From NCBI GenBank assembly GCA_029260035.1, contig JAJDEA010000222.1:15249-79248 (forward strand): a stretch of 64,000 nt of DNA, written 5' to 3'. The notes beneath the pieces are model-generated. The model worked only from the letters and a program-made list of their open reading frames with translations, did not search any database and was not told where the DNA came from. Positions 15,015-61,073 of the stretch are shown here, one piece after another (positions within the stretch are counted from its first letter, which is position 1; each line of letters opens with the position of its first letter). This DNA is from Phycisphaerae bacterium (lineage in GTDB: Bacteria; Planctomycetota; Phycisphaerae; UBA1845). Made by a program: the position numbers and the translations under genes.

Positions 15015-16640
15015 ATGTCCTTGGAGGAAGTGCAACGGATGGTAAAGGAAAACAGAAACACGATACTCATTGTTGAAGATGAGGCGGATCTGAGGTTTGT
15101 CATATTGGCACACCTTCGTGCCGCTGGCTTTAACACGCTCGAGGCATCGAATGGCCAAGAAGGCATTGAAATGGCCATCGAACACCAGCCCGACCTCGTC
15201 ATCATGGATGTTGGGTTGCCGATTCTCGATGGCGTTGCAGCAACAAAGCTGCTCAAAGGAAATCCTGAGACGTCACGCATACCCGTACTCATGCTTACCG
15301 GCCGTTCCGGCGCGGAAGATGTCGTTCGGGGTCTTGAAGCAGGCGCGCAAGAGTACCTAGCCAAACCCTTCGACCTGACCGAGCTGCTGGCGCGTGTACA
15401 ATCCGTGCATAAGCTGGCATGTGCGCATCGCGACCTGGACCATCTCAATGCACAGCTGGAAGTTGAAGTCGATAGCAAGACACAACGAATACAGTGCCTG
15501 TACGAAGTCATGCGAGACCTGAACCAAGCCTCATCACACGATAGGGTGTTAGACTTGGTCATCGACTGCGCGGAGCGACTGACTGGCGCATCCCGGCTTT
15601 CCCTCCTACTCCGTGAACCGATGAGCGACAGGCTATCATGTTCACGTGCGATCGGGATTGATCCGGCTGTTGTCCAGAGTATCAGTATTTCCGACGGCGA
15701 AGGCATAGCCGGGGAGGTCCTCCGAAGAGGTGCAACGTTCTCGGCGAGCGTTTCGGGGACCGGCGCAATGGATGCACGCGGGTACGACAGCAAGAATTTC
15801 GTCAGCACGCCTCTCGTATCCTCTGCATCTGGAGGCGAAGACGGAATCATTGGCGTGCTCAACGTAACCGGTCGATCGGACGAAAAGCCGTACACCGAAG
15901 AGGAGATCGATTGCCTGCAATCGCTTGCAAGCGCCGCGGCCATTGCGCTGGAAAACTTCGATCGTCGAGATCAACTGGAGCAATCCGTTCGGGTGCTTTT
16001 GCAGACAGTCGGCCATTTAGCTGAATATCGTGACGAAGAAACGACACAACATCTCAGCAGAGTTTCTCGCATGGCAGGGCTTCTCGCGACGGAAGCACAG
16101 ACGGAAGGGCCTTACGCGTCAGTTATCACTAACGATTTCATAGATCAACTGGTTCAGGCGGCCCCCTTGCACGATATTGGCAAAGTGGGTGTGCCCGATG
16201 AGATTCTCACAAAACCAGGCAAACTTACTGACGCTGAATTTGAGATAATGAAGACACATACGGAGATTGGCAGGCGAGTTCTCTCCCAGGCTCTCGACCC
16301 AGCCCATCCCGCACCCATACTTGAGATGTGCGTCGATATCGCAAGCAGTCATCACGAGAGATTCAACGGCAAGGGTTATCCAAATGGCCTTTCGGGTGAT
16401 ATCATACCGCTCTCGGCGAGAATGATCGCGCTTGTGGACGCATATGATGCCATTACCAGCGAGCGTCGATATTCACCCGCCAAGCCTCACGACGTGGCGG
16501 TTGAAATCATACGCGATGAAGCCGGTGCCCATTTTGACCCCGCGCTTGTCGATGCATTTATGCGTTGCCATCAGCAATTCGCCTTCCTTCGGGAAAGACT
16601 GACCGGCGCCGAATCCACACAAATCGCGTTGGCAGTTTAG
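15015..16640 (+). CDS. response regulator with REC-GAF-HD-GYP architecture (putative c-di-GMP phosphodiesterase)
   Basis: REC domain (ILIVEDEADL, DLVIMDVGLP, KPF). The central GAF-like region is followed by HD-GYP motifs LHDIGKVGVP and SHHERFNGKGYPNGL. Confidence 0.9.
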   Translation: MSLEEVQRMVKENRNTILIVEDEADLRFVILAHLRAAGFNTLEASNGQEGIEMAIEHQPDLVIMDVGLPILDGVAATKLLKGNPETSRIPVLMLTGRSGAEDVVRGLEAGAQEYLAKPFDLTELLARVQSVHKLACAHRDLDHLNAQLEVEVDSKTQRIQCLYEVMRDLNQASSHDRVLDLVIDCAERLTGASRLSLLLREPMSDRLSCSRAIGIDPAVVQSISISDGEGIAGEVLRRGATFSASVSGTGAMDARGYDSKNFVSTPLVSSASGGEDGIIGVLNVTGRSDEKPYTEEEIDCLQSLASAAAIALENFDRRDQLEQSVRVLLQTVGHLAEYRDEETTQHLSRVSRMAGLLATEAQTEGPYASVITNDFIDQLVQAAPLHDIGKVGVPDEILTKPGKLTDAEFEIMKTHTEIGRRVLSQALDPAHPAPILEMCVDIASSHHERFNGKGYPNGLSGDIIPLSARMIALVDAYDAITSERRYSPAKPHDVAVEIIRDEAGAHFDPALVDAFMRCHQQFAFLRERLTGAESTQIALAV

Positions 16641-50507: not shown

Positions 50508-52655
50508 CTATTCTCGCATCAGTCGATTGACAAACCGTGCAAGTCGCCTCGCGACGCGTTTGGCAACTGGTACGGCTCCACCTTGAAGCAAAACAGAGCC
50601 AGTCATGCCATGGCGAAGGTCGGAAGATTGGGCATCGGGCAGTTCGATAACGATCTCAAAATATGGCTCCGCCGCTTCGTGCGTGTTGGGATCCACTACG
50701 ATATGGCCGCCCGCCAATTGCGTGAGGGATGTCAAACGCACCGTGCGTGACCCGGCTGGGGAAACACTGACTACAATGCCCTCGTATATGTTTGTCGTAT
50801 TCGCTACTGTTCGGAACTTGGCGAAACCACCAATTGTTGGCTTGCTTTGGACATATTGATCTTCCGTAAGAAAAGCATGAACCTGCCAAGTGCCTGATGC
50901 AATCGTCGCAATGGGGTCACCCTCGTTAAGGTAAAGCCCTCGATCTTGCGGCTTCAAGCTGCTGATAATTCTACCTTCGCAAGGTGATTGCACAGCAAGG
51001 TTATCCAGTTTCAATTGGCTGTCTTTCAGGGCTTTTTCCCAGGAATTCGCCCGGTACGCTTCCTGTTGCGCCCTTTCCGGTTCGGTGCCGCGAAAGGCAT
51101 CTCGTCGAATCTGTGTCGCACGAAGATTGGCGCGTGCAAAAGCCACGTCTTGCTTAAGCGTGTCGTTACTGAGCGTCACCAAGGTTTGATCGATACTCGC
51201 ATCATCGCCGAATTGGGACGAAACACCTTCCACAAAGCCCGGCACTTTTGTACGAACGATTGTTTCATTCTCAGTCGTCAACCTTCCGCTGGCGTGAACG
51301 CGCGATGGCAAAGGCACAAATGTCAACAAGCAAGGCACGATAAGGAGGGCAACTACTCCTAACGCGATCGCTCTTTTTCGCACATGCGCGGTTTCCTCCG
51401 CGCGCCACAGGTAACCAATCGTTCTACGCAGCGTCGAAATCACCGTACTTCCGAAATAGAACACCGCCAATGACATACCCAGCAAGAACATTTTGGACGC
51501 CAGGATCGCCGAAATGGCGATCAGCAAAGAGATGCGATAAAGGAAAGCACAGATACCAAAGGAGAGTAGGAGCCAACGGAGTCTCCGGCTGGCGATTTCC
51601 GGCCCGGAGCGAATCCCGAGGAGCCATCGTTTCGCCTTAGCAGTTACATACTGGGCTGATTTTGCGCGAAGATTGGGAACCTCTGTCAAATCGCTAAGTA
51701 TATAGTAACCGTCGTAGCGCATGAGCGGGTTGATGTTGAATAGGACAGTGATGATGCTAGCCAGGAAGATGACGTTGTAGGCTATGCTGTTGACCAATGA
51801 TGGGCCTGTGAACGCCCAAACCAACACCGCCATAGCAGCAGTAAAACTCTCGAAATACATTCCGCCGAAACAGACGATCAAACGATCGAGCTTGCGCGAA
51901 AACCCCCACGAAGCGGTCGCATCCATATATGCGCACGGGGTAAACATGATTAGGTACGCGCCCATTTCGGGCACATGTCCGCCATATTTCTTGCACGCAT
52001 ACGCATGGCCGAACTCGTGGAAGACTTTGAGTGCGATAAGCGTAATCCACATGAGTGCCAGATTTTGACTGGCCATGATACCATGCAACGGTTCGGAGAG
52101 TTCGTGCCATCGCCTAAACGCAACGAAGCCTGCGACACACATCAACATTAGCCAACAGATGAAAGCTGGCCTAGTGAACAATGGCCTTGCGTACTGAATA
52201 GTGCGGTCCAAAAACGCGTTTGGATTCCAAAGTGGAATGCGTATGAAGAGAAACCCCAGGAACTTTTGCTTTCGGCTGGCGCGTTCTCGGGCGCGATAGC
52301 GCTTGTATAGAAGCTTGTGATCTGAAATTGGCAAATGAAGAAGACCAAGCTTGTGAAGGCCCATCACGAACCGATAAAACTTCTCTTCGTCGGTCTCGCG
52401 TAGGATCTTCTTGTCAACGAGGTTTTGAAAATTTTGGCTCAGCGGTTTGTGATCATTTATATTGATCAATACTTGGTAGTTCGCGGGATCGAGACGCTGA
52501 CTTTCAAACGTCACCGGATCGCGAACGATGTAGGATGGCTCACCTCGAAAAACATGACGGCTAACCTCCAGGTCTTCGCGCAGCTTGACCTGAACCGACC
52601 CAAGTTGGCTGGCGAGAGATGAAGCGGCGGGCGAATTGGCGGCACTTACGGCCAT
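50508..52655 (-). CDS. site-2-protease (peptidase M50) family membrane metalloprotease fused to a C-terminal HlyD/MFP-like periplasmic domain
   Basis: Both S2P signatures are present: HEFGHA (HExxH, in a TM helix) and NINPLMRYDGYY (NxxPxxxxDG). Several further TM helices are followed by a ~280-aa barrel/lipoyl-like adaptor domain (GRIISSLKPQDRGLYLNEGDPIATI, GIVVSVSPAG). The start overlaps the upstream gene by 10 nt. Confidence 0.85.
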   Translation of the reverse strand: MAVSAANSPAASSLASQLGSVQVKLREDLEVSRHVFRGEPSYIVRDPVTFESQRLDPANYQVLININDHKPLSQNFQNLVDKKILRETDEEKFYRFVMGLHKLGLLHLPISDHKLLYKRYRARERASRKQKFLGFLFIRIPLWNPNAFLDRTIQYARPLFTRPAFICWLMLMCVAGFVAFRRWHELSEPLHGIMASQNLALMWITLIALKVFHEFGHAYACKKYGGHVPEMGAYLIMFTPCAYMDATASWGFSRKLDRLIVCFGGMYFESFTAAMAVLVWAFTGPSLVNSIAYNVIFLASIITVLFNINPLMRYDGYYILSDLTEVPNLRAKSAQYVTAKAKRWLLGIRSGPEIASRRLRWLLLSFGICAFLYRISLLIAISAILASKMFLLGMSLAVFYFGSTVISTLRRTIGYLWRAEETAHVRKRAIALGVVALLIVPCLLTFVPLPSRVHASGRLTTENETIVRTKVPGFVEGVSSQFGDDASIDQTLVTLSNDTLKQDVAFARANLRATQIRRDAFRGTEPERAQQEAYRANSWEKALKDSQLKLDNLAVQSPCEGRIISSLKPQDRGLYLNEGDPIATIASGTWQVHAFLTEDQYVQSKPTIGGFAKFRTVANTTNIYEGIVVSVSPAGSRTVRLTSLTQLAGGHIVVDPNTHEAAEPYFEIVIELPDAQSSDLRHGMTGSVLLQGGAVPVAKRVARRLARFVNRLMRE

Positions 52656-54589
52656 AGGTGCAACCTGATATAGTCAATTGCCCGGTGTAAGGTGATCCAC
52701 CAGACTCGGCGAGATCCCAATTCGAGTTTCGCTACACCCTCCATACCCGGTCGAAGCCAATCTTGCTCAGCGACGACATCCGCTTCCGCGATATAGACGT
52801 TGATTCCGTTGCGAATTTGAGCCTCGCCGAGAACGCGCGACATACTAAATGGCGTACTTAGCTCCGGTTTAGCAAATGCGGCGAAGCGGCCCGTAAGCTT
52901 CTCGTGCAAGTCCGCAGAACTATGTTCTGGAACCTGCACCTCTAGCGTCCAATGGTCAAGCGGTGCGACGGCAAAGAGCGTCTCGCCTCGCGCAACAACG
53001 CCGCCAATCCGCTGGCGAAGGTCGCCCGTGACGACAACACCGGCAATCGGCGAACGCACCGTAGCCTGCGCGATGCGCCGAGTGACTATATCGAGTTTCG
53101 CCTGAGTAAGAACTTGCTTGGCTCTGGCAAGTTGAACATCGATCGGTAAGTTCGAGGCTAATGCTCGATCCGTTTCTCGCTCCAATACCGCCAGCTCGGC
53201 TTGAAGTTCCACCTGTTGCTGATCCAGTTCTTTGTGATTCAACAGGCACAAAACCTGGCCCGCTTGAACGACTTCGCCTTCGACAATCGAAGCGGACTCA
53301 ACAAGGCCATCGAAAGGCATCGTAAGTTGCCGCAACTGGTGCGGCGTGACGACACATGGAACAGTCAATTCATAATTCATCGACCCGAAGAAGAAGCTTG
53401 CGGTCATAAGAAGCGCAACCGCAACCATGACTTTCAATCCCACGCGATCCGGATGTCTAACCAATGTCGCAAATCGCTTGATTCCGTCCGTAGCATGAGT
53501 GAGAAAGCTTCGACTGGCGCGCCGTGTTAGTTCCAGTGCAGGCGCGTAAGGCTCTACTTTGCTCTTGATATCGTCGAGTTGTCCTGGTTTGAATGGATCA
53601 CTCGCCGGGCGACGAAGGCTTAGAACAGCTATCGTGTGACCGTCTACCGCAAGCGGCATCGACGCGACCGCATCACCATGCGACGCAGAGTGCCATTGTT
53701 TGTGCAGGCGATAGCCGGATAACTTCTCGTCTGTCGCCCAATCGGTTCCCCGCTGATAGGTAATGAGAGCGCTCGCATCGAGGCATTCTTCCATAGCACC
53801 TCGAATCGCGGACACGCCCGGACTCTGCGATTTCACATTGTCAAACCCAGAGATAGAAATTATCCGAATTCTCTTACCCTGAACCAGCCCGAGGGCGACT
53901 TGCTCGCATTGGGCCTTTGTACAAAGATCGTTCGTCAGAGCAAACGCTAATTCTTCCACGGTCGTAAAGGACGCGGCGCGTGACAGTGTCCGGTGGTCGG
54001 TCTGACTGCCAGACGCACGACCTCCTGGTGAATTAGCGCTTGCCGTCGGTTGCGATCGTCCGAGGAACTCGGCACTAAACGACATGAGTCGCGCCAAACT
54101 TTCCAGTTGGTCAAGTTGACGACCCAGCTTGGCTTCATTCGTCGGAGCAATGACAAGCGCAACCGCACCGATTGCCGGGCCGGACGAATCGAAAACCGTA
54201 GCTGACAGGAACGCGACTTTCGTCGCTCCTGTCTTGGATTTGAGCAACTTCGCTCTGGATGTAGGCTCGGCCAGGGATTCCGTCAAGAACTGTTGTAAGC
54301 TGTTCTTCCAAAACTTCGGATCCGTCGGACCAGCGTGCCAATCGTCTTGAATGACCTCGGAAGCGTATCGCACATGCATCGCCGCGTACGGGCATACAAA
54401 GTGCTTGGCTATTACTTTCAGGCACGATTGAAGGAACTGAATGGGTGATACGCTCTTGCGCGCAAGAGAAACGATTTCGGCGTAAGAAGCTCCCTCACGC
54501 TGGGAGTCCGAAGCACTCGTCGAATTCTTGGATGACGATTTTTCCAACTTCGTTTGCACGGATCGTGTCACCTTCCAATCAAAGCCCAA
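52646..54589 (-). CDS. GAF-GAF-TM-HlyD/MFP fusion protein
   Basis: Two cytoplasmic GAF-like modules (~residues 50-175 and 200-350) are followed by one TM helix (VGLKVMVAVALLMTASFFFG). Then comes an MFP domain with a coiled-coil hairpin (QQQVELQAELAVLERETDRALA...LARAKQVLTQAKLDIV) and lipoyl/barrel segments (VRSPIAGVVVTGD). The apparent start is non-ATG (TTG 54589; alternatives GTG 54571 and 54559). Confidence 0.8.
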   Translation of the reverse strand: MGFDWKVTRSVQTKLEKSSSKNSTSASDSQREGASYAEIVSLARKSVSPIQFLQSCLKVIAKHFVCPYAAMHVRYASEVIQDDWHAGPTDPKFWKNSLQQFLTESLAEPTSRAKLLKSKTGATKVAFLSATVFDSSGPAIGAVALVIAPTNEAKLGRQLDQLESLARLMSFSAEFLGRSQPTASANSPGGRASGSQTDHRTLSRAASFTTVEELAFALTNDLCTKAQCEQVALGLVQGKRIRIISISGFDNVKSQSPGVSAIRGAMEECLDASALITYQRGTDWATDEKLSGYRLHKQWHSASHGDAVASMPLAVDGHTIAVLSLRRPASDPFKPGQLDDIKSKVEPYAPALELTRRASRSFLTHATDGIKRFATLVRHPDRVGLKVMVAVALLMTASFFFGSMNYELTVPCVVTPHQLRQLTMPFDGLVESASIVEGEVVQAGQVLCLLNHKELDQQQVELQAELAVLERETDRALASNLPIDVQLARAKQVLTQAKLDIVTRRIAQATVRSPIAGVVVTGDLRQRIGGVVARGETLFAVAPLDHWTLEVQVPEHSSADLHEKLTGRFAAFAKPELSTPFSMSRVLGEAQIRNGINVYIAEADVVAEQDWLRPGMEGVAKLELGSRRVWWITLHRAIDYIRLHLWP

Positions 54590-54597
54590 GTTCAGAG

Positions 54598-55029
54598 CTA
54601 TGACAAAATGCCGGATTCCTGTTCGGTCTGTACATTCTCTGGTAGACAGATCGGCTTGAAAAACGCGAAGCCGGCTTCAAATGCGTCTTCGCGAACAAGC
54701 CTGCATCGGACACACCGTGCAAAAGTCAAGGGTAATGCGAACGAGCTTTTGTCAAATTGCAAACGGAAAATATCACCAACTCCGACGGGAATCGGGAAAA
54801 GTCCGCTACAACCTCCTTGAGAAATGTCGCCCGTGACGCCTTGAACTTTGAACTTCAACATCTCGCTCGAATTACCGGCTTGCAGTACAACGCTGATCTT
54901 GATGGCTAATCGAAAGTGCGCGCGCTGTTGCCGAACTTCTTCCGCGGTGTTCTTACCAAGCTCTTGGAGAAGGTCAAAAGCCGAATCCGCATCAAGAGAT
55001 GTGTTAGGATTTTGAAAATCATCAAACAT
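54598..55029 (-). CDS. stand-alone PilZ domain protein (putative c-di-GMP receptor)
   Basis: Both PilZ signatures are intact: RAHFR (RxxxR) and DISQGG (D/NxSxxG), ~30 residues apart. 143 aa. It lies 5 nt and 8 nt from the flanking MFP genes. Confidence 0.8.
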   Translation of the reverse strand: MFDDFQNPNTSLDADSAFDLLQELGKNTAEEVRQQRAHFRLAIKISVVLQAGNSSEMLKFKVQGVTGDISQGGCSGLFPIPVGVGDIFRLQFDKSSFALPLTFARCVRCRLVREDAFEAGFAFFKPICLPENVQTEQESGILS

Positions 55030-55034
55030 TTCGT

Positions 55035-56036
55035 TTACTCACGATACCCTTTTGACTCATCTTTAGAATCTGTTGGACTACTCTTATGCTGCTGATTGGT
55101 TTGCTGTGCTTCAATGACACGAGACGACAAGTGGTCTCTCTCGCTTACACCTTGCTGAAAATCTACATATACCTTTAGACCGGCTATCCAACGGTCATCC
55201 CTATTGGGTATGGCTAGCTTCACGTTGAACGTTTGACTCGCCCCATCTGCAACCCGGTTAACCAACACAACTTCACCGGCACGGGTTTTCCAGCCTGAGC
55301 TGACTGGATTCACGCTGAGTATGTTTCCTGCGTGGATTTGAGTAGCAAGTGTCAATGGGCAGGCAAATGACACCACAAGCGGGTCGAGCTGAGCCACACG
55401 AACGACGCCTTCTCCTTGTTCGACGGGCTCGCCTTCTTCTTTGAAGACTTCAGCCACATAACCTGAAAAGGGGGCAGAGACAAGGTATTCCGCGAGCGCA
55501 TGCTGCTCACGTTGATAGATCCAGGAATCTACCGTATGGCGAAAATTGGCGAGGTCATATTCGATCTTGTTGATATCGCGTGCAGCAAGGGCGTCACTCA
55601 ATTCCTTGGACGAAGCAGAATCTCCGCCGTAAAGTTTCTCAAGCCGATCCCAATCACGCCTGGCCCGTTCCCATTTCGTCTTGGCCAGTTCAATAGCGAG
55701 CGTTGATTCTGCTACCGTTTTTGCTTTCTCAGTTTGGGCGCGCTGCACACGATCATCAAGAACGAATAGGATCTGCCCCTTTTCTATGCTGTCGCCTTCT
55801 TCGACGGCGATGTGGCTGATAAGCGTGGGTCTCGCCGCACCCAGCATCGCTTCACGAACAGGCATCGTAAGCCCGAAAACTCTGACCGCGGAATTCGACG
55901 CAGGCGTGGCGGTAACCGCTTGCTGAGCAGATGATGTTGATTCTCCGATTACAACGAAAGAGAGAATCAACACGACATACTGCCAGGCAATAGGTATCTT
56001 ACAGGTTGCTTTCTTGACGCGGGTTCCGTTCCGCAT
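55035..56036 (-). CDS. HlyD/RND-type membrane fusion (periplasmic adaptor) protein
   Basis: N-terminal TM/signal anchor, a lipoyl-like motif (ISHIAVEEGDSIEKGQILFVLD...VSAPFSGYVAEVFKEEGEPVEQGEGVVRV), a coiled-coil hairpin and a beta-barrel domain. Confidence 0.8.
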   Translation of the reverse strand: MRNGTRVKKATCKIPIAWQYVVLILSFVVIGESTSSAQQAVTATPASNSAVRVFGLTMPVREAMLGAARPTLISHIAVEEGDSIEKGQILFVLDDRVQRAQTEKAKTVAESTLAIELAKTKWERARRDWDRLEKLYGGDSASSKELSDALAARDINKIEYDLANFRHTVDSWIYQREQHALAEYLVSAPFSGYVAEVFKEEGEPVEQGEGVVRVAQLDPLVVSFACPLTLATQIHAGNILSVNPVSSGWKTRAGEVVLVNRVADGASQTFNVKLAIPNRDDRWIAGLKVYVDFQQGVSERDHLSSRVIEAQQTNQQHKSSPTDSKDESKGYRE

Positions 56037-56163: not shown

Positions 56164-58698
56164 TTAACGATCCTTGCTTCCTCGGCCACCTTCATGCGTC
56201 CGATCTTGTTTTTCGCTACGAGCGCCAAGGCCACGAATTGCGCTCCAAAGCCCTGCAAAAAACCCGCTGGATGCGCCTGCGCTTGCAACCATCGTATCGT
56301 CAGTCGATTCGCCATCGGTTTCATCCCAACGATCGACTTCGAACTCGTTATGGGTCTCAACCTCTGATTCGTTATCCCGATTGAATCCGCGATCGGCGTA
56401 TTCAACTTTTCCGGACGAAGTCTCTGACGTATCGGACTCGTTTCCGTTTGATTCATCCGCCGAGTCGGAAGCAGCAAAGGCCGCCTCGAGATTGTCACTG
56501 TGAACGCCGCTCGCAATTTCATGAAAGACGTCCGGCACCTCAAGACCCGCATCGCCATTGGCCAAGAAGCTAACATCATTACTATCTTCCTGGTCCATGT
56601 CCGATGAATAAGCGATTTCCTGCTGCGTATCGTATTCCGTCTCAACCGTATCTGCTAACGGAGTAGCGGACGACGTTTCGGCTACGTCCGCAAGAAAATC
56701 AGATTCAGCTCGCGCCACGTCGACTGTATCCGAAACTTCCTCCAACGGATTCATGACACCAAGCTCTTCGGAACCATCCCAAACAACTTCATCACCTTTG
56801 TCGGAATGCCCCGCCCCACTGCCGCCACCAGACTCATTGCTTTGCGACCCTGCTGTACTTCCCGTCGTTGCCACAGGTACATCGACGACCGGCGAAGAAG
56901 GAGTGGTGTCGGTTGACCCATGCTGAGCCGATCCGCCATCACCTTCAACTGACTCGACGACAGCAACGGGTGTTTGAACGACCGGCGTCACATCTGCGAC
57001 GCTTTCCGTCGGCTCTGGCGGCGCTATCACATCGGACGCCGATTCATCGGCTCCCGATCCACCAGACTCACTCACAGTCACATCGTCAACATCCTTCGCA
57101 ACAGCGGAGGCATCTTCACTCTCGACGTCGTCAGGCGTAGGTGTTGCTACGGGAGCAGGTGCACTTGGCGCCGGAGTGGATGCAGGCGCAGTCGGCGCGC
57201 TCGCAGCCACATTGACCGTAACCGTCTCGGTCGCGGTGTTACCATTGCCGTCATCGACGGTGTAGGTGAAGGAATCGCTGCCGTTGAAGTTGGCATTTGG
57301 CGTATACGAGAACGTGCCATCGCCGTTGTCAGCAACCGTGCCGTTACTAGCTTGAGTAAAGCTGGCAACGGACAGGGTATCGCCATCTGGGTCGCTGTCA
57401 TTGGTCAACACATTGCCCGTCGTAACCGCCGTGTCTTCGGTAGTTGAGAATGTATCGGCCGCAGCTGTTGGTCCATCATTTACCGCAGCCACATTGACCG
57501 TAACCGTCTCGGTCGCGGTGTTACCGTTGCCGTCATCGACGGTGTAGGTGAAGGAATCGCTACCGTTGAAGTTGGCATTTGGCGCATAAGAGAACGTGCC
57601 ATCGCCGTTGTCAGCAACCGTACCGTTACTTGCCTGCGTAAAGCTGGCAACGGACAGGGTATCGCCATCCGGATCGCTGTCATTGGTCAACACATTTCCC
57701 GTCGTAACCGGCGTGTCCTCGGTAGTTGAGAAAGTGTCGGCAACGGCTGTCGGAGCTGAGTTGGACGCAACGTCATTAACAACAACATTGACCAAATCTG
57801 TATGCTCACCACCATTGCCATCGTCCGCCGTTACCGAGAACGTCAGAGTGGTAGGCCCCGTTACGTCCGGTGCCGTGAACGTAGGCTGGGCGTCGGTGTC
57901 ACTGCTTAGCGTTACCGATGGGCCTTGAACCTGCGTCCAGGCATAAGTTAGCGAATCACTGTTGGCGTCGGCGCTCAGAGACGCATCCAGTGTCACGTTA
58001 CTGCCTTCATCCACCGTTTGGTCAACACCCGCATTGGCGACCGGTGCGACATTCACACTGCCTCCGGAACCACCTCCGGATCCGCCAGAGCTACCCGAGC
58101 CTCCGCCAGAACCACCAGAACTTCCGCTTGAACCTCCACCCGAGCCGCCGGAGCTACCTCCAAAGCCACCGCCTGAACCGCCACCCGATCCGCCAGAACT
58201 ACCCGAGCCTCCGCCAGAACCACCAGAACTTCCGCCTGAACCGCCACCCGATCCGCCAGAACTACCCGAGCCTCCGCCAGAACCACCAGAACTTCCGCCT
58301 GAACCGCCGCCGGAGCTACCTCCAAAGCCACCGCCTGAGCCGCCACCTGATCCACCAGAGCTACCTGAGCTTCCGCCTGATCCACCGCTCGAGCCGCCGA
58401 AGAGCGAGTCATCTCCACTGCCACCGAATAGCTGGTCGTTCGAATCACCACCTGACATTAAGTCGTCATCGCTAAGTCCGTCAGCGCCGTCAGTTCCAGT
58501 AGAGGAGTCGTTTCCTTCGGTGGCTCCGTCTAGCGGATCGCCCGTATCCGCATCCACCCAGGTTGCGGAAAGGAGAATGCGAGGCTCGAGCGCTTCAATA
58601 TCCAACGAAGCAGAATCTGGAGTCTTATTAGACTGGTTTCCCTTCTTCTTACCTGATCCGCTGCGACGTTTTGTTTGCTTGCTCTTTTTCCTGGCCAT
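56164..58698 (-). CDS. large secreted protein: basic N-terminus with LEPRILLSA motif, ~115-aa Gly/Ser linker, PKD/Ig-like domain, two cadherin-like tandem ~94-aa repeats, acidic tail and C-terminal hydrophobic/basic segment
   Basis: 844 aa. The N-terminus is MARKKSKQTKRRSGSGKKKG...IEALEPRILLSATW. It is followed by a (G/S)n tract, then VNVAPVANAGVDQTVDEGSNVTLDASLS...LTYAWTQVQGPSVTLS (PKD-like). Next come 2x ADTFSTTEDT.VTTGNVLTNDSDPDGDTLSV...GSDSFTYTVDDGNGNTATETVTVNV. A D/E/S/T-rich region ends in GFFAGLWSAIRGLGARSEKQDRTHEGGRGSKDR. Confidence 0.85.
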   Translation of the reverse strand: MARKKSKQTKRRSGSGKKKGNQSNKTPDSASLDIEALEPRILLSATWVDADTGDPLDGATEGNDSSTGTDGADGLSDDDLMSGGDSNDQLFGGSGDDSLFGGSSGGSGGSSGSSGGSGGGSGGGFGGSSGGGSGGSSGGSGGGSGSSGGSGGGSGGSSGGSGGGSGSSGGSGGGSGGGFGGSSGGSGGGSSGSSGGSGGGSGSSGGSGGGSGGSVNVAPVANAGVDQTVDEGSNVTLDASLSADANSDSLTYAWTQVQGPSVTLSSDTDAQPTFTAPDVTGPTTLTFSVTADDGNGGEHTDLVNVVVNDVASNSAPTAVADTFSTTEDTPVTTGNVLTNDSDPDGDTLSVASFTQASNGTVADNGDGTFSYAPNANFNGSDSFTYTVDDGNGNTATETVTVNVAAVNDGPTAAADTFSTTEDTAVTTGNVLTNDSDPDGDTLSVASFTQASNGTVADNGDGTFSYTPNANFNGSDSFTYTVDDGNGNTATETVTVNVAASAPTAPASTPAPSAPAPVATPTPDDVESEDASAVAKDVDDVTVSESGGSGADESASDVIAPPEPTESVADVTPVVQTPVAVVESVEGDGGSAQHGSTDTTPSSPVVDVPVATTGSTAGSQSNESGGGSGAGHSDKGDEVVWDGSEELGVMNPLEEVSDTVDVARAESDFLADVAETSSATPLADTVETEYDTQQEIAYSSDMDQEDSNDVSFLANGDAGLEVPDVFHEIASGVHSDNLEAAFAASDSADESNGNESDTSETSSGKVEYADRGFNRDNESEVETHNEFEVDRWDETDGESTDDTMVASAGASSGFFAGLWSAIRGLGARSEKQDRTHEGGRGSKDR
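57203..57766. repeat. near-identical 282-bp tandem duplication (2 copies) encoding the cadherin-like modules
   Basis: gcagccacattgaccgtaaccgtctcggtcgcggtgttacc... starts at 57203 and again at 57485. About 250 bp of each copy differ by only a handful of substitutions. Confidence 0.85.
58058..58400. repeat. imperfect tandem repeat with ~63-bp period encoding the Gly/Ser linker
   Basis: gcctgaaccgccacccgatccgccagaactacccgagcctccgccagaaccaccagaacttcc recurs at 58171, 58234 and 58297. The flanking units are degenerate. Confidence 0.8.
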
Positions 58699-58730
58699 AA
58701 CGATTCCCTTTCCGTTTATTCAACTGGAAC

Positions 58731-59234
58731 TTATGCTGCCGACAGAATGGTTTCGACGGTGAGGTTGTCCCAGCGTTCGATTCTGTGAAGAAACCTTTCG
58801 AGTGGGACTCGATGCGTTCCTCGGCTTAGCAACACAAGCTTTTGTGCCCAATTCCTTAGTGCTTCTCTGTTTGCTTTCTTATCATCCAAGAGACGCCGAA
58901 TCTCCCGCCACCAGGGCGTTTCCGGCTCTTTGAAGTTGATCTGATAACCATGATCGAGCGCAAGCGTAACATATGCACCAGTTGTAGCGCATGGGCTGTT
59001 GTCGCTATCTACGACAATGGGACTTGCATTGTTTTGGATTGCCCGCTTGATACGCTCATAGTTCCAGCGTCGTGCCGATGGCAGTAGTTTAGCGGACCAA
59101 TCGTATCGAGCCGGGTTGTCTCCGGCTTGGGTATAAAAGAATTCGTCGAACTCGATGTGAATCCCGCCATCGATCACAAGTTGTCGGCTGGCGAAGGATT
59201 TTCCGCAACTCGGAAGCCCCCGCATGAGAATCAT
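58731..59234 (-). CDS. P-loop NTPase/kinase (AAA_33-like)
   Basis: Walker A GLPSCGKSF sits right after the start MILMRG (ATG 59234; the longest ORF extends to 59441), with VVDSDN as a Walker-B-like motif. 167 aa. It lies 32 nt upstream of the large secreted-protein gene on the same strand. Confidence 0.65.
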   Translation of the reverse strand: MILMRGLPSCGKSFASRQLVIDGGIHIEFDEFFYTQAGDNPARYDWSAKLLPSARRWNYERIKRAIQNNASPIVVDSDNSPCATTGAYVTLALDHGYQINFKEPETPWWREIRRLLDDKKANREALRNWAQKLVLLSRGTHRVPLERFLHRIERWDNLTVETILSAA

Positions 59235-59888
59235 TCTCTTTTGAGTTTTTTGCTCGAATCGTGGGCGAGATGGGCAGGTACAAATACGCGCAGTTACGGG
59301 TTCGACTTCCGCCGAGGTTGATGCAGGCCTCGCGGCATTTCCGTAGCCTATTGCGTTGCCGCCTTCGACAGGATTGGCTTTTTCTATGTCACTTGTTCCC
59401 CGAAACATACCAACATTCCCAATACGACCGCCAATAGGCAAGGACGGAGTTTTTTGGAACTACCGTCTTTGAGGGAAAAACCCTCGGTAATTGAAAGGTA
59501 CGAAACATCCAAGCGGCGGGCAAAACCGCGAACAAGACGAGATTTGAAAACCCAATCCTCTCGGACGTAAGGAGCCCAACTCGTGCTACCTATGTTCACA
59601 TACTGTTTACAATACAGGTCGAAACACATCGGTCAGCACAAGTTATCGGTCAGTAGATTTCGTGAAGGAATTTGACGCGCGATCACTTTTGTACCTTGCG
59701 CAAGGCCGTTCCGAACCATCTTCGTTTGATCGCCTTTACGCACAGTCCGAGAAATGTTTCAATGTTCGGATTGAGGGTCCATCTCTTCAGGTAAGATGGG
59801 ATGCGCACTCGCCGACGATCGATCATTGCGTCCCCAAGCGGGAAAGACGATTCGCGCGAAATGAGAAGAGTGCAAAGCAAACAGAAAG

Positions 59889-61073
59889 ATGGTGATGATG
59901 ACGGACCGAAAATTCGGCAGTGAGTCTCCAAGCCGACCAGTTGTCGCCCGGCCACGCCGCTGGGTAGCAGGCTGGGGGACCATGATCGGTGTCTGGTCGC
60001 TTGTTTTCCTCCTGGCGTGGACGTTGGTTCGACAGACGAGATCAGCGCCGCTGCGCGATCCGCAAATCGAGGCCCGTCCGGTAATCCCTCGAGGCGACCT
60101 TTCGGCTGGCGAGCAGGCGACCGTCCAGCTCTTTGCTCAGACGTCACCCTCTGTCGTATACATTACCAACATCGAATACAGCAGAGTCTCGCTCTTCAGT
60201 TTGGATGTGTTCAAGATTCCGAAAGGTACGGGGTCCGGGTTTATTTACGACCGCCAAGGCTACATTGTGACAAATTTTCACGTCGTGGCTGGTTCGAGCG
60301 CGATTGAGGTGACGCTTGCCGATCACTCCCGGTGGGAGGCTCACGTCGTTGGATATGAAATGGACAAAGACCTGGCGGTTATCAAGATCGATGCGCCGTC
60401 CGAACAACTCAAGCCGATAATAGTCGGGTCTTCTAACGACTTGCAGGTCGGCCAAAAAGTCTTCGCAATCGGGAATCCGTTCGGCTGGGATCAGACGCTG
60501 ACAACGGGGATTGTTAGCGCCCTAGGGAGACAGATCGATTCGATCGTAGAAGGCCGTACGATTCGCGATGTGATTCAAACCGACGCGGCGATCAACCCTG
60601 GCAATTCTGGCGGGCCTTTGCTGGACAGTTCCGGCAGGCTCATAGGGGTCAATACGCAGATTGCAAGCCCTTCCGGCGCAAGTGCCGGGATTGGATTCGC
60701 TGTGCCGGTCGATACCGTCAATCGGATCGTTCCGCAAATCATCAAGTATGGTCATGTTATTAGGCCGGGCCTTGGGGTGCGCATTGCCCCCGACTGGGTC
60801 ACGAAAAGACTGGACCTGCCCGGCCCCTTGCTCGACACCGTCACGACAAACAGTGCCGCCGCCAAGGCAGGTTTACGAGGCACAATCGTTCAGGGGCGAA
60901 GGATTCGGCAACTGGGAGATGTCATCCTTCGCGTTGATGACCGGGAAATTAAACAAGAGGACGATCTCCTGGATGCGCTGGAGCGTCATGCCGTCGGTGA
61001 TGAAGCGACCGTTACCTACTTGCGCGAAGACAAAGTGACTACGACTCGAGTGATTTTACAACAAGTGCGATAA
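59889..61073 (+). CDS. HtrA/DegP-family serine protease with PDZ domain
   Basis: N-terminal TM anchor and catalytic triad blocks TNFHVV (His), DLAVIKI (Asp) and GNSGGPLLD (Ser). A C-terminal PDZ domain is present. Confidence 0.85.
   Translation: MVMMTDRKFGSESPSRPVVARPRRWVAGWGTMIGVWSLVFLLAWTLVRQTRSAPLRDPQIEARPVIPRGDLSAGEQATVQLFAQTSPSVVYITNIEYSRVSLFSLDVFKIPKGTGSGFIYDRQGYIVTNFHVVAGSSAIEVTLADHSRWEAHVVGYEMDKDLAVIKIDAPSEQLKPIIVGSSNDLQVGQKVFAIGNPFGWDQTLTTGIVSALGRQIDSIVEGRTIRDVIQTDAAINPGNSGGPLLDSSGRLIGVNTQIASPSGASAGIGFAVPVDTVNRIVPQIIKYGHVIRPGLGVRIAPDWVTKRLDLPGPLLDTVTTNSAAAKAGLRGTIVQGRRIRQLGDVILRVDDREIKQEDDLLDALERHAVGDEATVTYLREDKVTTTRVILQQVR

Follow-up and report, generated by a model that had tools for sequence, protein, structure and literature searches.

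The window considered here is a stretch of 64,000 nt from a Phycisphaerae bacterium (NCBI GenBank assembly GCA_029260035.1, contig JAJDEA010000222.1, positions 15,249 to 79,248 of the forward strand), and coordinates within it are counted from its first letter. On the minus strand lies the gene of an 844-aa protein (56164..58698, ATG start; open reading frame (ORF) list and domain matches), which was classed as a LEPR-XLL/RTX/tandem-95 repeat protein with a cassette-linked C-terminal tail and is referred to as the cargo. Downstream of it, on the same strand and with successive gaps of 127, 5, 8 and -10 nt, four genes encode a short membrane-fusion protein (MFP; 333 aa, 55035..56036, minus), a stand-alone PilZ protein (143 aa, 54598..55029, minus), a long MFP with a GAF-like region (GAF-MFP; 647 aa, 52646..54589, minus) and a three-part fusion (715 aa, 50508..52655, minus) of an RRE-like domain (RiPP recognition element; RiPP, a peptide that is made by the ribosome and modified after translation), an M50 metalloprotease and a further MFP. 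These four genes are termed the cassette. For comparison, 45 further loci were collected, partly by looking up homologues of the 715-aa protein exactly and partly by scanning metagenomes with the 647-aa protein as the seed; loci and proteins are cited by L and P numbers where they have to be told apart.

A first-pass annotation, made from the sequence of the window, had called the 844-aa protein a putative cargo. The label is fair, since the gene is syntenic with the envelope cassette in many genomes. All features that this annotation had placed at 56164-58698 were recovered there, and the strand, which it had left unstated, is minus. A protein identical to the cargo is contained in the public collection (P0001, on a 112,419-base NCBI contig).

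Anatomy of the cargo and its C-terminal tail

The cargo as a whole is strongly acidic (pI 4.05, net charge -110) and begins with a K/R-rich N-terminus (residues 1-33, 58600..58698, minus; composition and hydropathy) that holds 8 K and 3 R and has a net charge of +9. This basic character is common to all complete cargo orthologues. The best 19-residue Kyte-Doolittle mean in residues 1-78 was 0.74, compared with 1.97 for the membrane anchor of the short MFP, in line with the earlier description of a basic N-terminus lacking a classical hydrophobic signal. A Sec or Tat signal peptide was rejected on two grounds, this low hydropathy, which was the criterion applied for Sec, and the lack of an RR motif.

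The LEPR-XLL motif follows directly (IEALEPRILLSATW, residues 34-47, 58558..58599, minus). NCBIfam model NF012209 (LEPR-8K/LEPR-XLL; cutoff 17) matched the full cargo with 19.4 bits and its N-terminal 102 residues with 25.5 bits; the match covers residues 34-46 of 844 and thus lies at the extreme N-terminus, likewise in all complete orthologues. That LEPRILLSA recurs at the N-termini of very large proteins, as had been stated at first pass, agrees with the curated LEPR-8K family of NCBIfam and with a Vibrio example of about 8000 aa, and the motif is therefore already catalogued and not new. The "8K" of the model name, if read informally as a size, does not apply to the cargo with its 844 aa, and cassette-linked relatives span 652 to >2600 aa. 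The Pfam family PF07595 ("Planctomycete extracellular") was rejected as a classification, with a match only in the L002 orthologue that stayed below threshold (11.3 bits versus a cutoff of 25.5) and fell on the same LEPR motif region.

An acidic segment that is conserved among orthologues (VDADTG..GATEGND..TGT, residues 48-100, 58399..58557, minus; alignment) ends in two RTX nonapeptides, GGDSNDQLF and GGSGDDSLF (residues 83-100, 58399-58452, minus), both of which fit the repeat pattern perfectly. PF00353 (HemolysinCabind) matched the isolated N-terminus of the cargo with 25.0 bits at a cutoff of 23, so that the acidic DG repeats, described earlier as calcium-binding-like, can be taken from their profile match as genuine RTX repeats; the GGxGxDxUx nonapeptide is present twice in the cargo and many more times in its orthologues. 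The adjoining Gly/Ser spacer (residues 101-214, 58057..58398, minus; composition and repeat analysis) consists of G70, S42 and F2 in 114 residues, or 115 if F100 is counted, exactly the nearly pure Gly/Ser tract with two F that had been reported. Its DNA repeats imperfectly, in tandem and in frame, with periods of 21, 63 and 108 and matches of 65-94%. In the alignment the spacer occupies the position of a longer RTX block in the orthologues, and the L039 orthologue carries a similar (SGGG)n tract ahead of its first tandem-95 module. Two PPEPP-rich antisense ORFs of 266 and 185 aa overlap the tract (57962-58762 and 57918-58475, both plus) and were regarded as by-products of the GGN/AGY codon repeat rather than as genes.

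The middle of the protein is made up of a K319L-like PKD domain (residues 216-320, 57739..58053, minus), again as annotated before, which was matched by PF22352 at residues 223-307 with an E-value of 1.3e-16, and of two adjacent 93-residue modules (residues 321-507, 57178..57738, minus; Pfam and NCBIfam). The duplication of these modules, noted at first pass, is evident (84/93 residues identical, 90%; DNA period 282 bp at 94% identity), but the name "cadherin-like" given to them is better replaced by tandem-95/Big_9: the tandem-95 model NF012211 (cutoff 90) scored 193.2 bits and Big_9 (cutoff 23.6) scored 191.5 bits, while Cadherin_5 matches the same modules too. On the strength of these profile matches the cargo is a member of the known LEPR-XLL, tandem-95 and RTX-repeat families.

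The remaining 337 residues form the acidic tail (residues 508-844, 56167..57177, minus; composition and tail alignment), which is rich in D, E, S, T, V and A and has a net charge of -62. It had been described as about 300 aa of probably disordered sequence. Its D/E/S/T/V-rich composition was as described, but it is not a mere disordered spacer, because it contains a conserved module with two motifs. The module comprises about 200 residues and opens with WDGxEDLxVLDP (WDGSEELGVMNPLEE, residues 640-654, 56737-56781, minus; tail alignment), which across the cargos reads W-D-G-[ST]-E-[DE]-L-x-V-[LM]-[DN]-P. The second motif is the C-terminal signal (residues 811-844, 56167..56268, minus; motif scan and helical moment), a predicted amphipathic helix SGFFAGLWSAIRGLGA (GFFAxLWxxxRGLG) followed by the polar/basic end RSEKQDRTHEGGRGSKDR. 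Its consensus in the family is s-G-F-[FL]-A-x-[LVF]-W-x-x-[LVIFM]-R-[GSA]-x-[GA]-G, after which come about 10-25 polar residues and a basic terminus, e.g. RRR, RKR or KDR. For the 14-residue motif core a helical hydrophobic moment of 1.32 was calculated, versus 0.59 for shuffles, 0.5% of which reach 1.32. The hydrophobic segment is amphipathic and extends over about 14 residues, with a best 15-residue hydropathy of 1.27, and it includes Arg.

Searched as a regular expression in the last 70 residues of 3283 stop-to-stop ORFs (about 590 kb of gathered loci), the C-terminal motif was found in 29, of which 28 were cargo-position genes or small tail-only ORFs and one was spurious; this count measures position specificity and is no independent test. 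A profile built from three tails was run against 1.84 billion representative proteins and retrieved 16 proteins at E<=0.001, all of which end the match at most 19 residues from their own C-terminus. The full-length proteins among them (P0245, P0246, P0251 and P0247, the last being the L040 cargo) have the basic start and LEPRILLS[AG]TW as well. No Pfam or NCBIfam model matched the tail at E<=10 (four tails were used in the NCBIfam scan). Judged by these searches, the tail with its conserved module is the most family-specific part of the cargo.

Tail-only ORFs of 252 and 87 aa were observed at L002 1594-2352 (also on the independent contig L003) and at L039 3028-3291, respectively. They contain the acidic module with a C-terminal FxxLWxx[RW]G, have no LEPR N-terminus and adjoin a full-length cargo; they may serve as additional substrates or be what is left of duplicated tails. 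Since such ORFs without LEPR occur in two cassette loci, the tail can be regarded as the cassette-specific element. P0249 was discarded as an independent tail-only substrate, because it is a gene call after a scaffold gap: at L046 2-1566 the gap, visible as a run of X in the translation, splits a single cargo into two gene calls.

The cassette and its conservation with the cargo

The short MFP carries an N-terminal membrane anchor (residues 12-30) and was matched by TIGR01730 with 109.7 bits (cutoff 94.9) and also by HlyD_D23; it is syntenic in 20 of 46 sources, i.e. the window and the 45 further loci. The PilZ protein was identified by PF07238 (37.2 bits versus a cutoff of 22.5, E 4e-9) and has both motifs for binding of cyclic di-GMP (c-di-GMP), RxxxR as RAHFR and DxSxxG as DISQGG. 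The patterns RxxxR and [DN]xSxxG were present in 38/38 orthologous PilZ ORFs scanned, duplicate loci included. By its motifs the stand-alone PilZ protein is a predicted c-di-GMP receptor. In the long MFP (domain matches and hydropathy), a cytoplasmic N-terminal region of about 380 residues is followed by one predicted transmembrane helix (residues 383-401) and a periplasmic HlyD-type domain. The GAF similarity of the cytoplasmic region is weak (E 0.006) and faint in several orthologues.

The 715-aa protein (profiles, AlphaFold2 (AF2) models and Foldseek) is composed of an RRE-like domain at about residues 25-105, an M50/S2P-type metalloprotease and a C-terminal MFP with a coiled-coil hairpin at about residues 450-715. 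The zinc-site motifs of the protease are HEFGH (213-217) and NPLMRYDG (309-316), and the residues H213, E214, H217, N309, P310, D315 and G316 are invariant among 36 homologues of the fusion protein; because both M50/S2P motifs are invariant, the protease is predicted to be active. Pfam Peptidase_M50 reached 21.6 bits, under its cutoff of 27.2, the NCBIfam model that matched the protease domain best was the daptide HExxH protease NF041824 (E 2e-42; 145.7 bits, under the cutoff of 300), and a YydH/LiaK-family match stayed at 37.6 bits, under 225. For the C-terminal part, profile and fold comparisons alike gave MacA, MexA and AcrA as matches.

A PqqD-like RRE at the N-terminus was predicted from the AF2 secondary structure, upon which residues 1-135 were modelled alone and searched against the PDB. 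In the model of the whole fusion (pLDDT 79), residues 30-102 form a b-b-b-a-a-a unit, which is accompanied by a membrane domain of helices and by the MFP with its coiled-coil hairpin; a full-length fold search with this model returned MFP matches only. With the model of residues 1-135 (pLDDT 83), the top 9 Foldseek matches were all RREs, namely TbiB1 with leader peptide (5v1v, 5v1u), a lasso-peptide B1 protein with leader (6jx3), the RRE domain of the sactipeptide synthase CteB (5wgg, 5why) and the cyanobactin oxidase ThcOx (5lq4), and the matches that followed were unrelated proteins. Target-normalised TM-scores of the RRE matches were up to 0.71 and the best E-value was 4e-3. In the model, the N-terminal domain thus has an RRE-like fold, a three-stranded sheet with three helices. 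The domain lies ahead of the first membrane helix predicted for the fusion, with a basic stretch behind it, and is therefore most likely cytoplasmic; facing the cytoplasm, it would meet a substrate before export.

Homologues of the apparatus for which source names were available were all labelled as Planctomycetes/Planctomycetota or Phycisphaerae/Phycisphaerales, and a close relative of the cargo repeats was labelled as Pirellulaceae. The recurrent gene order is (MFP)-PilZ-long MFP-M50/MFP, and in the Pfam-annotated neighbourhoods of L002, L004, L039, L040 and L043 the same order was found with the cargo first. Among the 26 distinct cassettes that contain PilZ and have 600 nt or more of sequence upstream, 22 are directly preceded by a large same-strand gene with the C-terminal motif, and the apparatus proteins are only 30-55% identical across relatives that keep the gene order.

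Nine cargos are complete (the window, L002, L009, L014, L015, L040, P0245, P0246 and P0251), and all nine read M-(basic ~35)-[SP]F-x-[ILV]E-x-LEPRILLS[AG]TW-VDADTG-x4-GA-x-EGND, with RTX repeats directly behind. The N-terminal fragments P0241, P0242 and P0243 have this form too, and LEPRILLS[AG]TW is invariant in the nine and in these three. The passengers in between differ widely, from a Gly/Ser spacer, one PKD domain and two tandem-95 modules in the window to 8 cadherin domains with CBM60 (L018), 18 RTX units with PKD (L020) and Laminin_G with PKD (L004 and L040). From these alignments the cargos are a family in which both ends are conserved and the middle is freely variable. A whole-protein homology search was dominated by tandem-95 proteins of many phyla, with P0053 and P0015 as the only true relatives, a word-indexed search with the N-terminal 102 residues gave three short fragments only, and a single-sequence scan of genome contigs with the M50 fusion gave one locus only.

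Several loci depart from the common layout. A tandem duplication was observed at L020 1-13489, where cargo-PilZ-long MFP-M50/MFP is followed by a second cargo and a second long MFP-M50/MFP pair without PilZ; the second cargo (1300 aa, 18 RTX units) has the variants LFEARILMSAT and FYAAFWMFVQGIG. L042 9291-12157 (CP070790.1, a 4.28-Mb genome) is a degenerate cassette, in which the long MFP is reduced to its C-terminal 237 residues and the M50/MFP gene is intact, with a GH42 glycosidase gene upstream and neither PilZ nor cargo. Distant long-MFP/M50-MFP pairs without PilZ lie beside a >2866-aa FG-GAP protein and a SapC-family gene (L036 2-8599 and 8603-9415) and beside an FGE-sulfatase-like gene (L033); the C-terminal motif was not found in the upstream proteins of L036 and L033. 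At least four loci have HtrA/DegP-like trypsin-PDZ genes no more than a few kb away from the cassette (window 59889-61073, plus; L002 12421-14766; L008 835-2076; L043 16841-18976); these may be a recurrent neighbour, serving e.g. in envelope quality control, or a coincidence.

Interpretation and comparison with known systems

The reading we favour, at a probability of roughly one half, is that the cargo is an exported calcium-binding fibre of the adhesin type and the dedicated substrate of the four downstream genes, with the tail acting as its address label. The extended, flexible surface fibre proposed at first pass is plausible for such a protein. In the mechanism that we infer, the cytoplasmic RRE-like domain of the 715-aa fusion would bind a linear segment of the tail, and the M50 intramembrane metalloprotease would cut at the C-terminal helix or close to it. 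The three MFP domains (short MFP, GAF-MFP and M50-MFP) would form a periplasm-spanning conduit toward the outer membrane, through which the cargo would be passed or released, and PilZ, possibly together with the GAF region, would make the processing or export step dependent on c-di-GMP. Equally putative are the direction in which the cargo is translocated, what powers this step and the placement of the product at the surface. An acidic cargo that contains RTX repeats and has no Sec signal fits transport in an unfolded state with calcium-driven folding outside the cell; unfolded export with calcium-dependent extracellular folding is established for type I substrates.

More tentatively, the locus may represent an undescribed sorting or secretion pathway of Planctomycetota for large LEPR-XLL/RTX surface proteins, in which an RRE fused to the M50 protease and an MFP reads the tail signal, two more MFPs assist, the protease is the core of an MFP machine and PilZ sets a c-di-GMP gate. 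The inner-membrane core of such a pathway may then be a protease and not an ABC, RND or MFS pump. There is a precedent in the M50 protease EpeP, which is thought both to cleave and to export its own peptide (PMC10885120).

Several observations weigh against the favoured reading. The adjacent cargo is missing in four cassettes (L008, L010, L027 and L044/45), and the cargo P0246 (L047) is located away from any cassette. No ATPase, ABC (ATP-binding cassette) transporter or TolC-like gene is conserved in the annotated cassette neighbourhoods, and as an outer-membrane channel is likewise lacking from the conserved cassette, the energy source and the exit through the outer membrane are left unexplained. 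No M50/S2P protease is known to move large proteins, and in a normal transmembrane S2P substrate a longer and less polar helix than that at the C-terminus of the cargo would be expected. The RRE match is weak by E-value (4e-3), and peptide binding is a prediction from the modelled fold. The specificity figure of the C-terminal regular expression is partly circular, because the expression was derived from the loci in which it was counted.

Some of the known systems used for comparison pair a C-terminal sorting signal with a dedicated intramembrane protease. PEP-CTERM/exosortase, GlyGly-CTERM/rhombosortase and MYXO-CTERM/myxosortase likewise have a short C-terminal motif, a helix with a hydrophobic face and a basic cluster, the signal is genomically coupled to a polytopic membrane protease, and the passengers are variable. 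Unlike in these systems, the cargo segment is amphipathic and not strong enough to make a transmembrane helix, an N-terminal Sec signal is absent, and the protease comes from a different family, M50/S2P, with an RRE and an MFP fused to it. Of the three parts of such a sorting signal, the cargo has the motif and the basic cluster at its end; its hydrophobic segment has only about 14 residues, where a transmembrane helix of about 20 is usual; no curated CTERM model matched the four tails (NCBIfam, E<=10). In alginate secretion, Alg44 also couples c-di-GMP sensing by PilZ to an MFP-type periplasmic export component, but there the substrate is a polysaccharide and PilZ is fused to the MFP, while here PilZ is separate and the cargo is a protein. 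The cargo with its cassette does not correspond to a canonical type I secretion system (T1SS) locus, to LapA/LapG/LapD, to the curated C-terminal sorting signals or to RiPP precursor systems; its kin are envelope machines built on MFPs, and systems in which a C-terminal signal has a membrane protease of its own. There is no specific curated model for the combination in NCBIfam or Pfam, and in the literature (PubMed Central (PMC) open-access articles and bioRxiv) no description was found of a C-terminal amphipathic signal combined with RRE-M50-MFP, GAF-MFP, PilZ and MFP.

Of the alternatives, the one that survives best, unlikely as it is, takes the cargo for an ordinary type I substrate that is exported by an ABC/MFP/TolC machine encoded elsewhere, with the cassette regulating it after export through a c-di-GMP-dependent release of the LapA/LapG/LapD kind. 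The likeness to type I RTX adhesins (LapA, SiiE, MpIBP, FrhA) is considerable and includes acidic calcium-binding RTX repeats, tandem Ig-like extenders, the absence of a Sec signal, conservation of the extreme C-terminus, HlyD-family proteins as direct neighbours and, within the locus, a predicted c-di-GMP receptor plus a protease. The Vibrio protein of about 8000 aa on which LEPR-XLL has been reported moreover has C-terminal RTX and serralysin domains (PMC10868602). In the cassette loci, however, MFPs are present and an ABC ATPase or TolC is absent from the conserved neighbourhood of all annotated loci. The cargo has a conserved C-terminal helix, but its RTX block is N-terminal and not beside this candidate signal. 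Three MFP domains would be superfluous if the role of the cassette were purely regulatory, and an RRE domain that is most likely cytoplasmic would meet its substrate before export and not after it. The parallel with LapA/LapG/LapD is also limited, as the protease is an M50 intramembrane metalloprotease and not the periplasmic cysteine protease LapG, and the sensor is PilZ, with the GAF-like region, and not LapD. No LapA-type retention module, LapG-family protease or LapD domain was found in the cargo or its neighbours by Pfam and NCBIfam matches, and "retention module" names among the homologues belong to matches that share the tandem-95 repeats only.

A second alternative, which we consider improbable, assigns the recognition step to the other end of the cargo: the LEPR-XLL segment would be a leader bound by the RRE-like domain, and the M50 protease would remove the basic leader, e.g. 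after LLSA, at the hand-over to the MFP conduit, much as in RiPP and bacteriocin systems, where export and removal of the leader peptide are coupled. RREs classically bind N-terminal leaders as an added beta-strand, and several of the RRE structures matched here are leader complexes. LEPRILLS[AG]TW is strand-prone, is invariant in all complete cargos and stands behind a basic stretch that looks disposable. The cargo also resembles the LEPR-XLL proteins of NF012209 in having LEPRxLL behind a basic start, above the curated cutoff, and in being repeat-rich and adhesin-like; it differs from them in size (844 versus about 8000 aa) and in adding a family-specific tail that lies outside the model. 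Against the leader, LEPR-XLL is general and occurs outside the range of the cassette, as in Vibrio, the tail-only ORFs keep the C-terminal motif without LEPR, and the tail is the part unique to cassette neighbours, and for these reasons the tail is favoured over LEPR as the cassette signal. In the literature covered, LEPR-XLL was mentioned in passing only, and no function or export route was found for it.

To a third proposal we give no more than an outside chance. In it the product would be a cationic amphipathic peptide of about 35 residues from the C-terminus, matured by a RiPP-like cleave-and-export cassette, with the tail-only ORFs as the primary precursors and the large proteins merely carrying the same follower module. 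An RRE with an M50 protease of the YydH/EpeP/daptide kind is typical of peptide maturation systems, the best NCBIfam match of the protease being the daptide HExxH protease, with the RRE-like fold in front and the cleave-and-export role of EpeP as a further parallel. The tail-only ORFs of 87 and 252 aa in two loci and the strongly amphipathic helix with its basic end would also suit such precursors. Unlike the RiPP M50 proteases, however, the cassette protease scores under the family cutoffs, is fused to an MFP and is accompanied by two more MFPs and PilZ, and no modifying enzyme (radical SAM or similar) is encoded in the cassette. The substrates have 650 to >2600 residues in place of a short peptide, and a precursor of 650-2600 aa would be uneconomical for a peptide of 35. 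Most loci hold a large protein only, the N-terminal LEPR-RTX end is conserved together with the tail, and the apparent tail-only entry P0249 was the scaffold-gap artefact described above. That a generic repeat protein stands beside efflux-adaptor genes by chance is hardly credible: the components do carry generic annotations when taken singly, such as "efflux RND transporter periplasmic adaptor subunit" and "Ig-like domain-containing protein", but the gene order is kept among relatives at 30-55% apparatus identity, along with a position-specific C-terminal motif.

Neighbouring sequence and implications

Upstream of the cargo, at a distance of 32 nt from its start, lies an ORF for an AAA_33 P-loop kinase-like protein (58731..59441, minus; PF13671, E 3e-10). 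Its position is not conserved in other cassette loci, its membership of the system is uncertain, and its true start is likely the internal MILMRGLPSCGKS. A stretch of about 50 nt (CGGTCGTWTTGGGAATGTTGGWATG...) and a shorter block, about 700 nt upstream of the cargo start, are conserved between the window (59395-59520, minus) and L002/L003 only (L002 1475-1610); in L002 the tail-only ORF starts within this stretch, while in the window it is located in the 5' extension of the AAA_33 ORF. The region 58600-59900 was searched for a riboswitch or other RNA upstream of the operon and gave no Rfam match at E<=1, and the terminator and promoter scans remained at background level. At 15015-16640 (plus), about 40 kb from the PilZ cassette, the window encodes a response-regulator-GAF-HD_5 protein of the HD-GYP type, which is a candidate c-di-GMP phosphodiesterase.

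The most valuable content of the locus, beyond what the first-pass annotation had emphasised, is the tail signal together with the cassette; should the model fail, the cargo is an ordinary member of known repeat-adhesin families. For the export of the many large LEPR-XLL repeat proteins of planctomycetes, no description was found in the literature covered. Here the locus offers a testable handle, as a five-gene unit with a short C-terminal signal, a candidate receptor (RRE), a candidate enzyme (M50) and a candidate switch (PilZ). If the model is true, MFP machines would gain a new inner-membrane partner, leader recognition of the RiPP type would be extended to large proteins, and c-di-GMP would be tied to the display of surface adhesins in a phylum known for its attachment and biofilm lifestyles.

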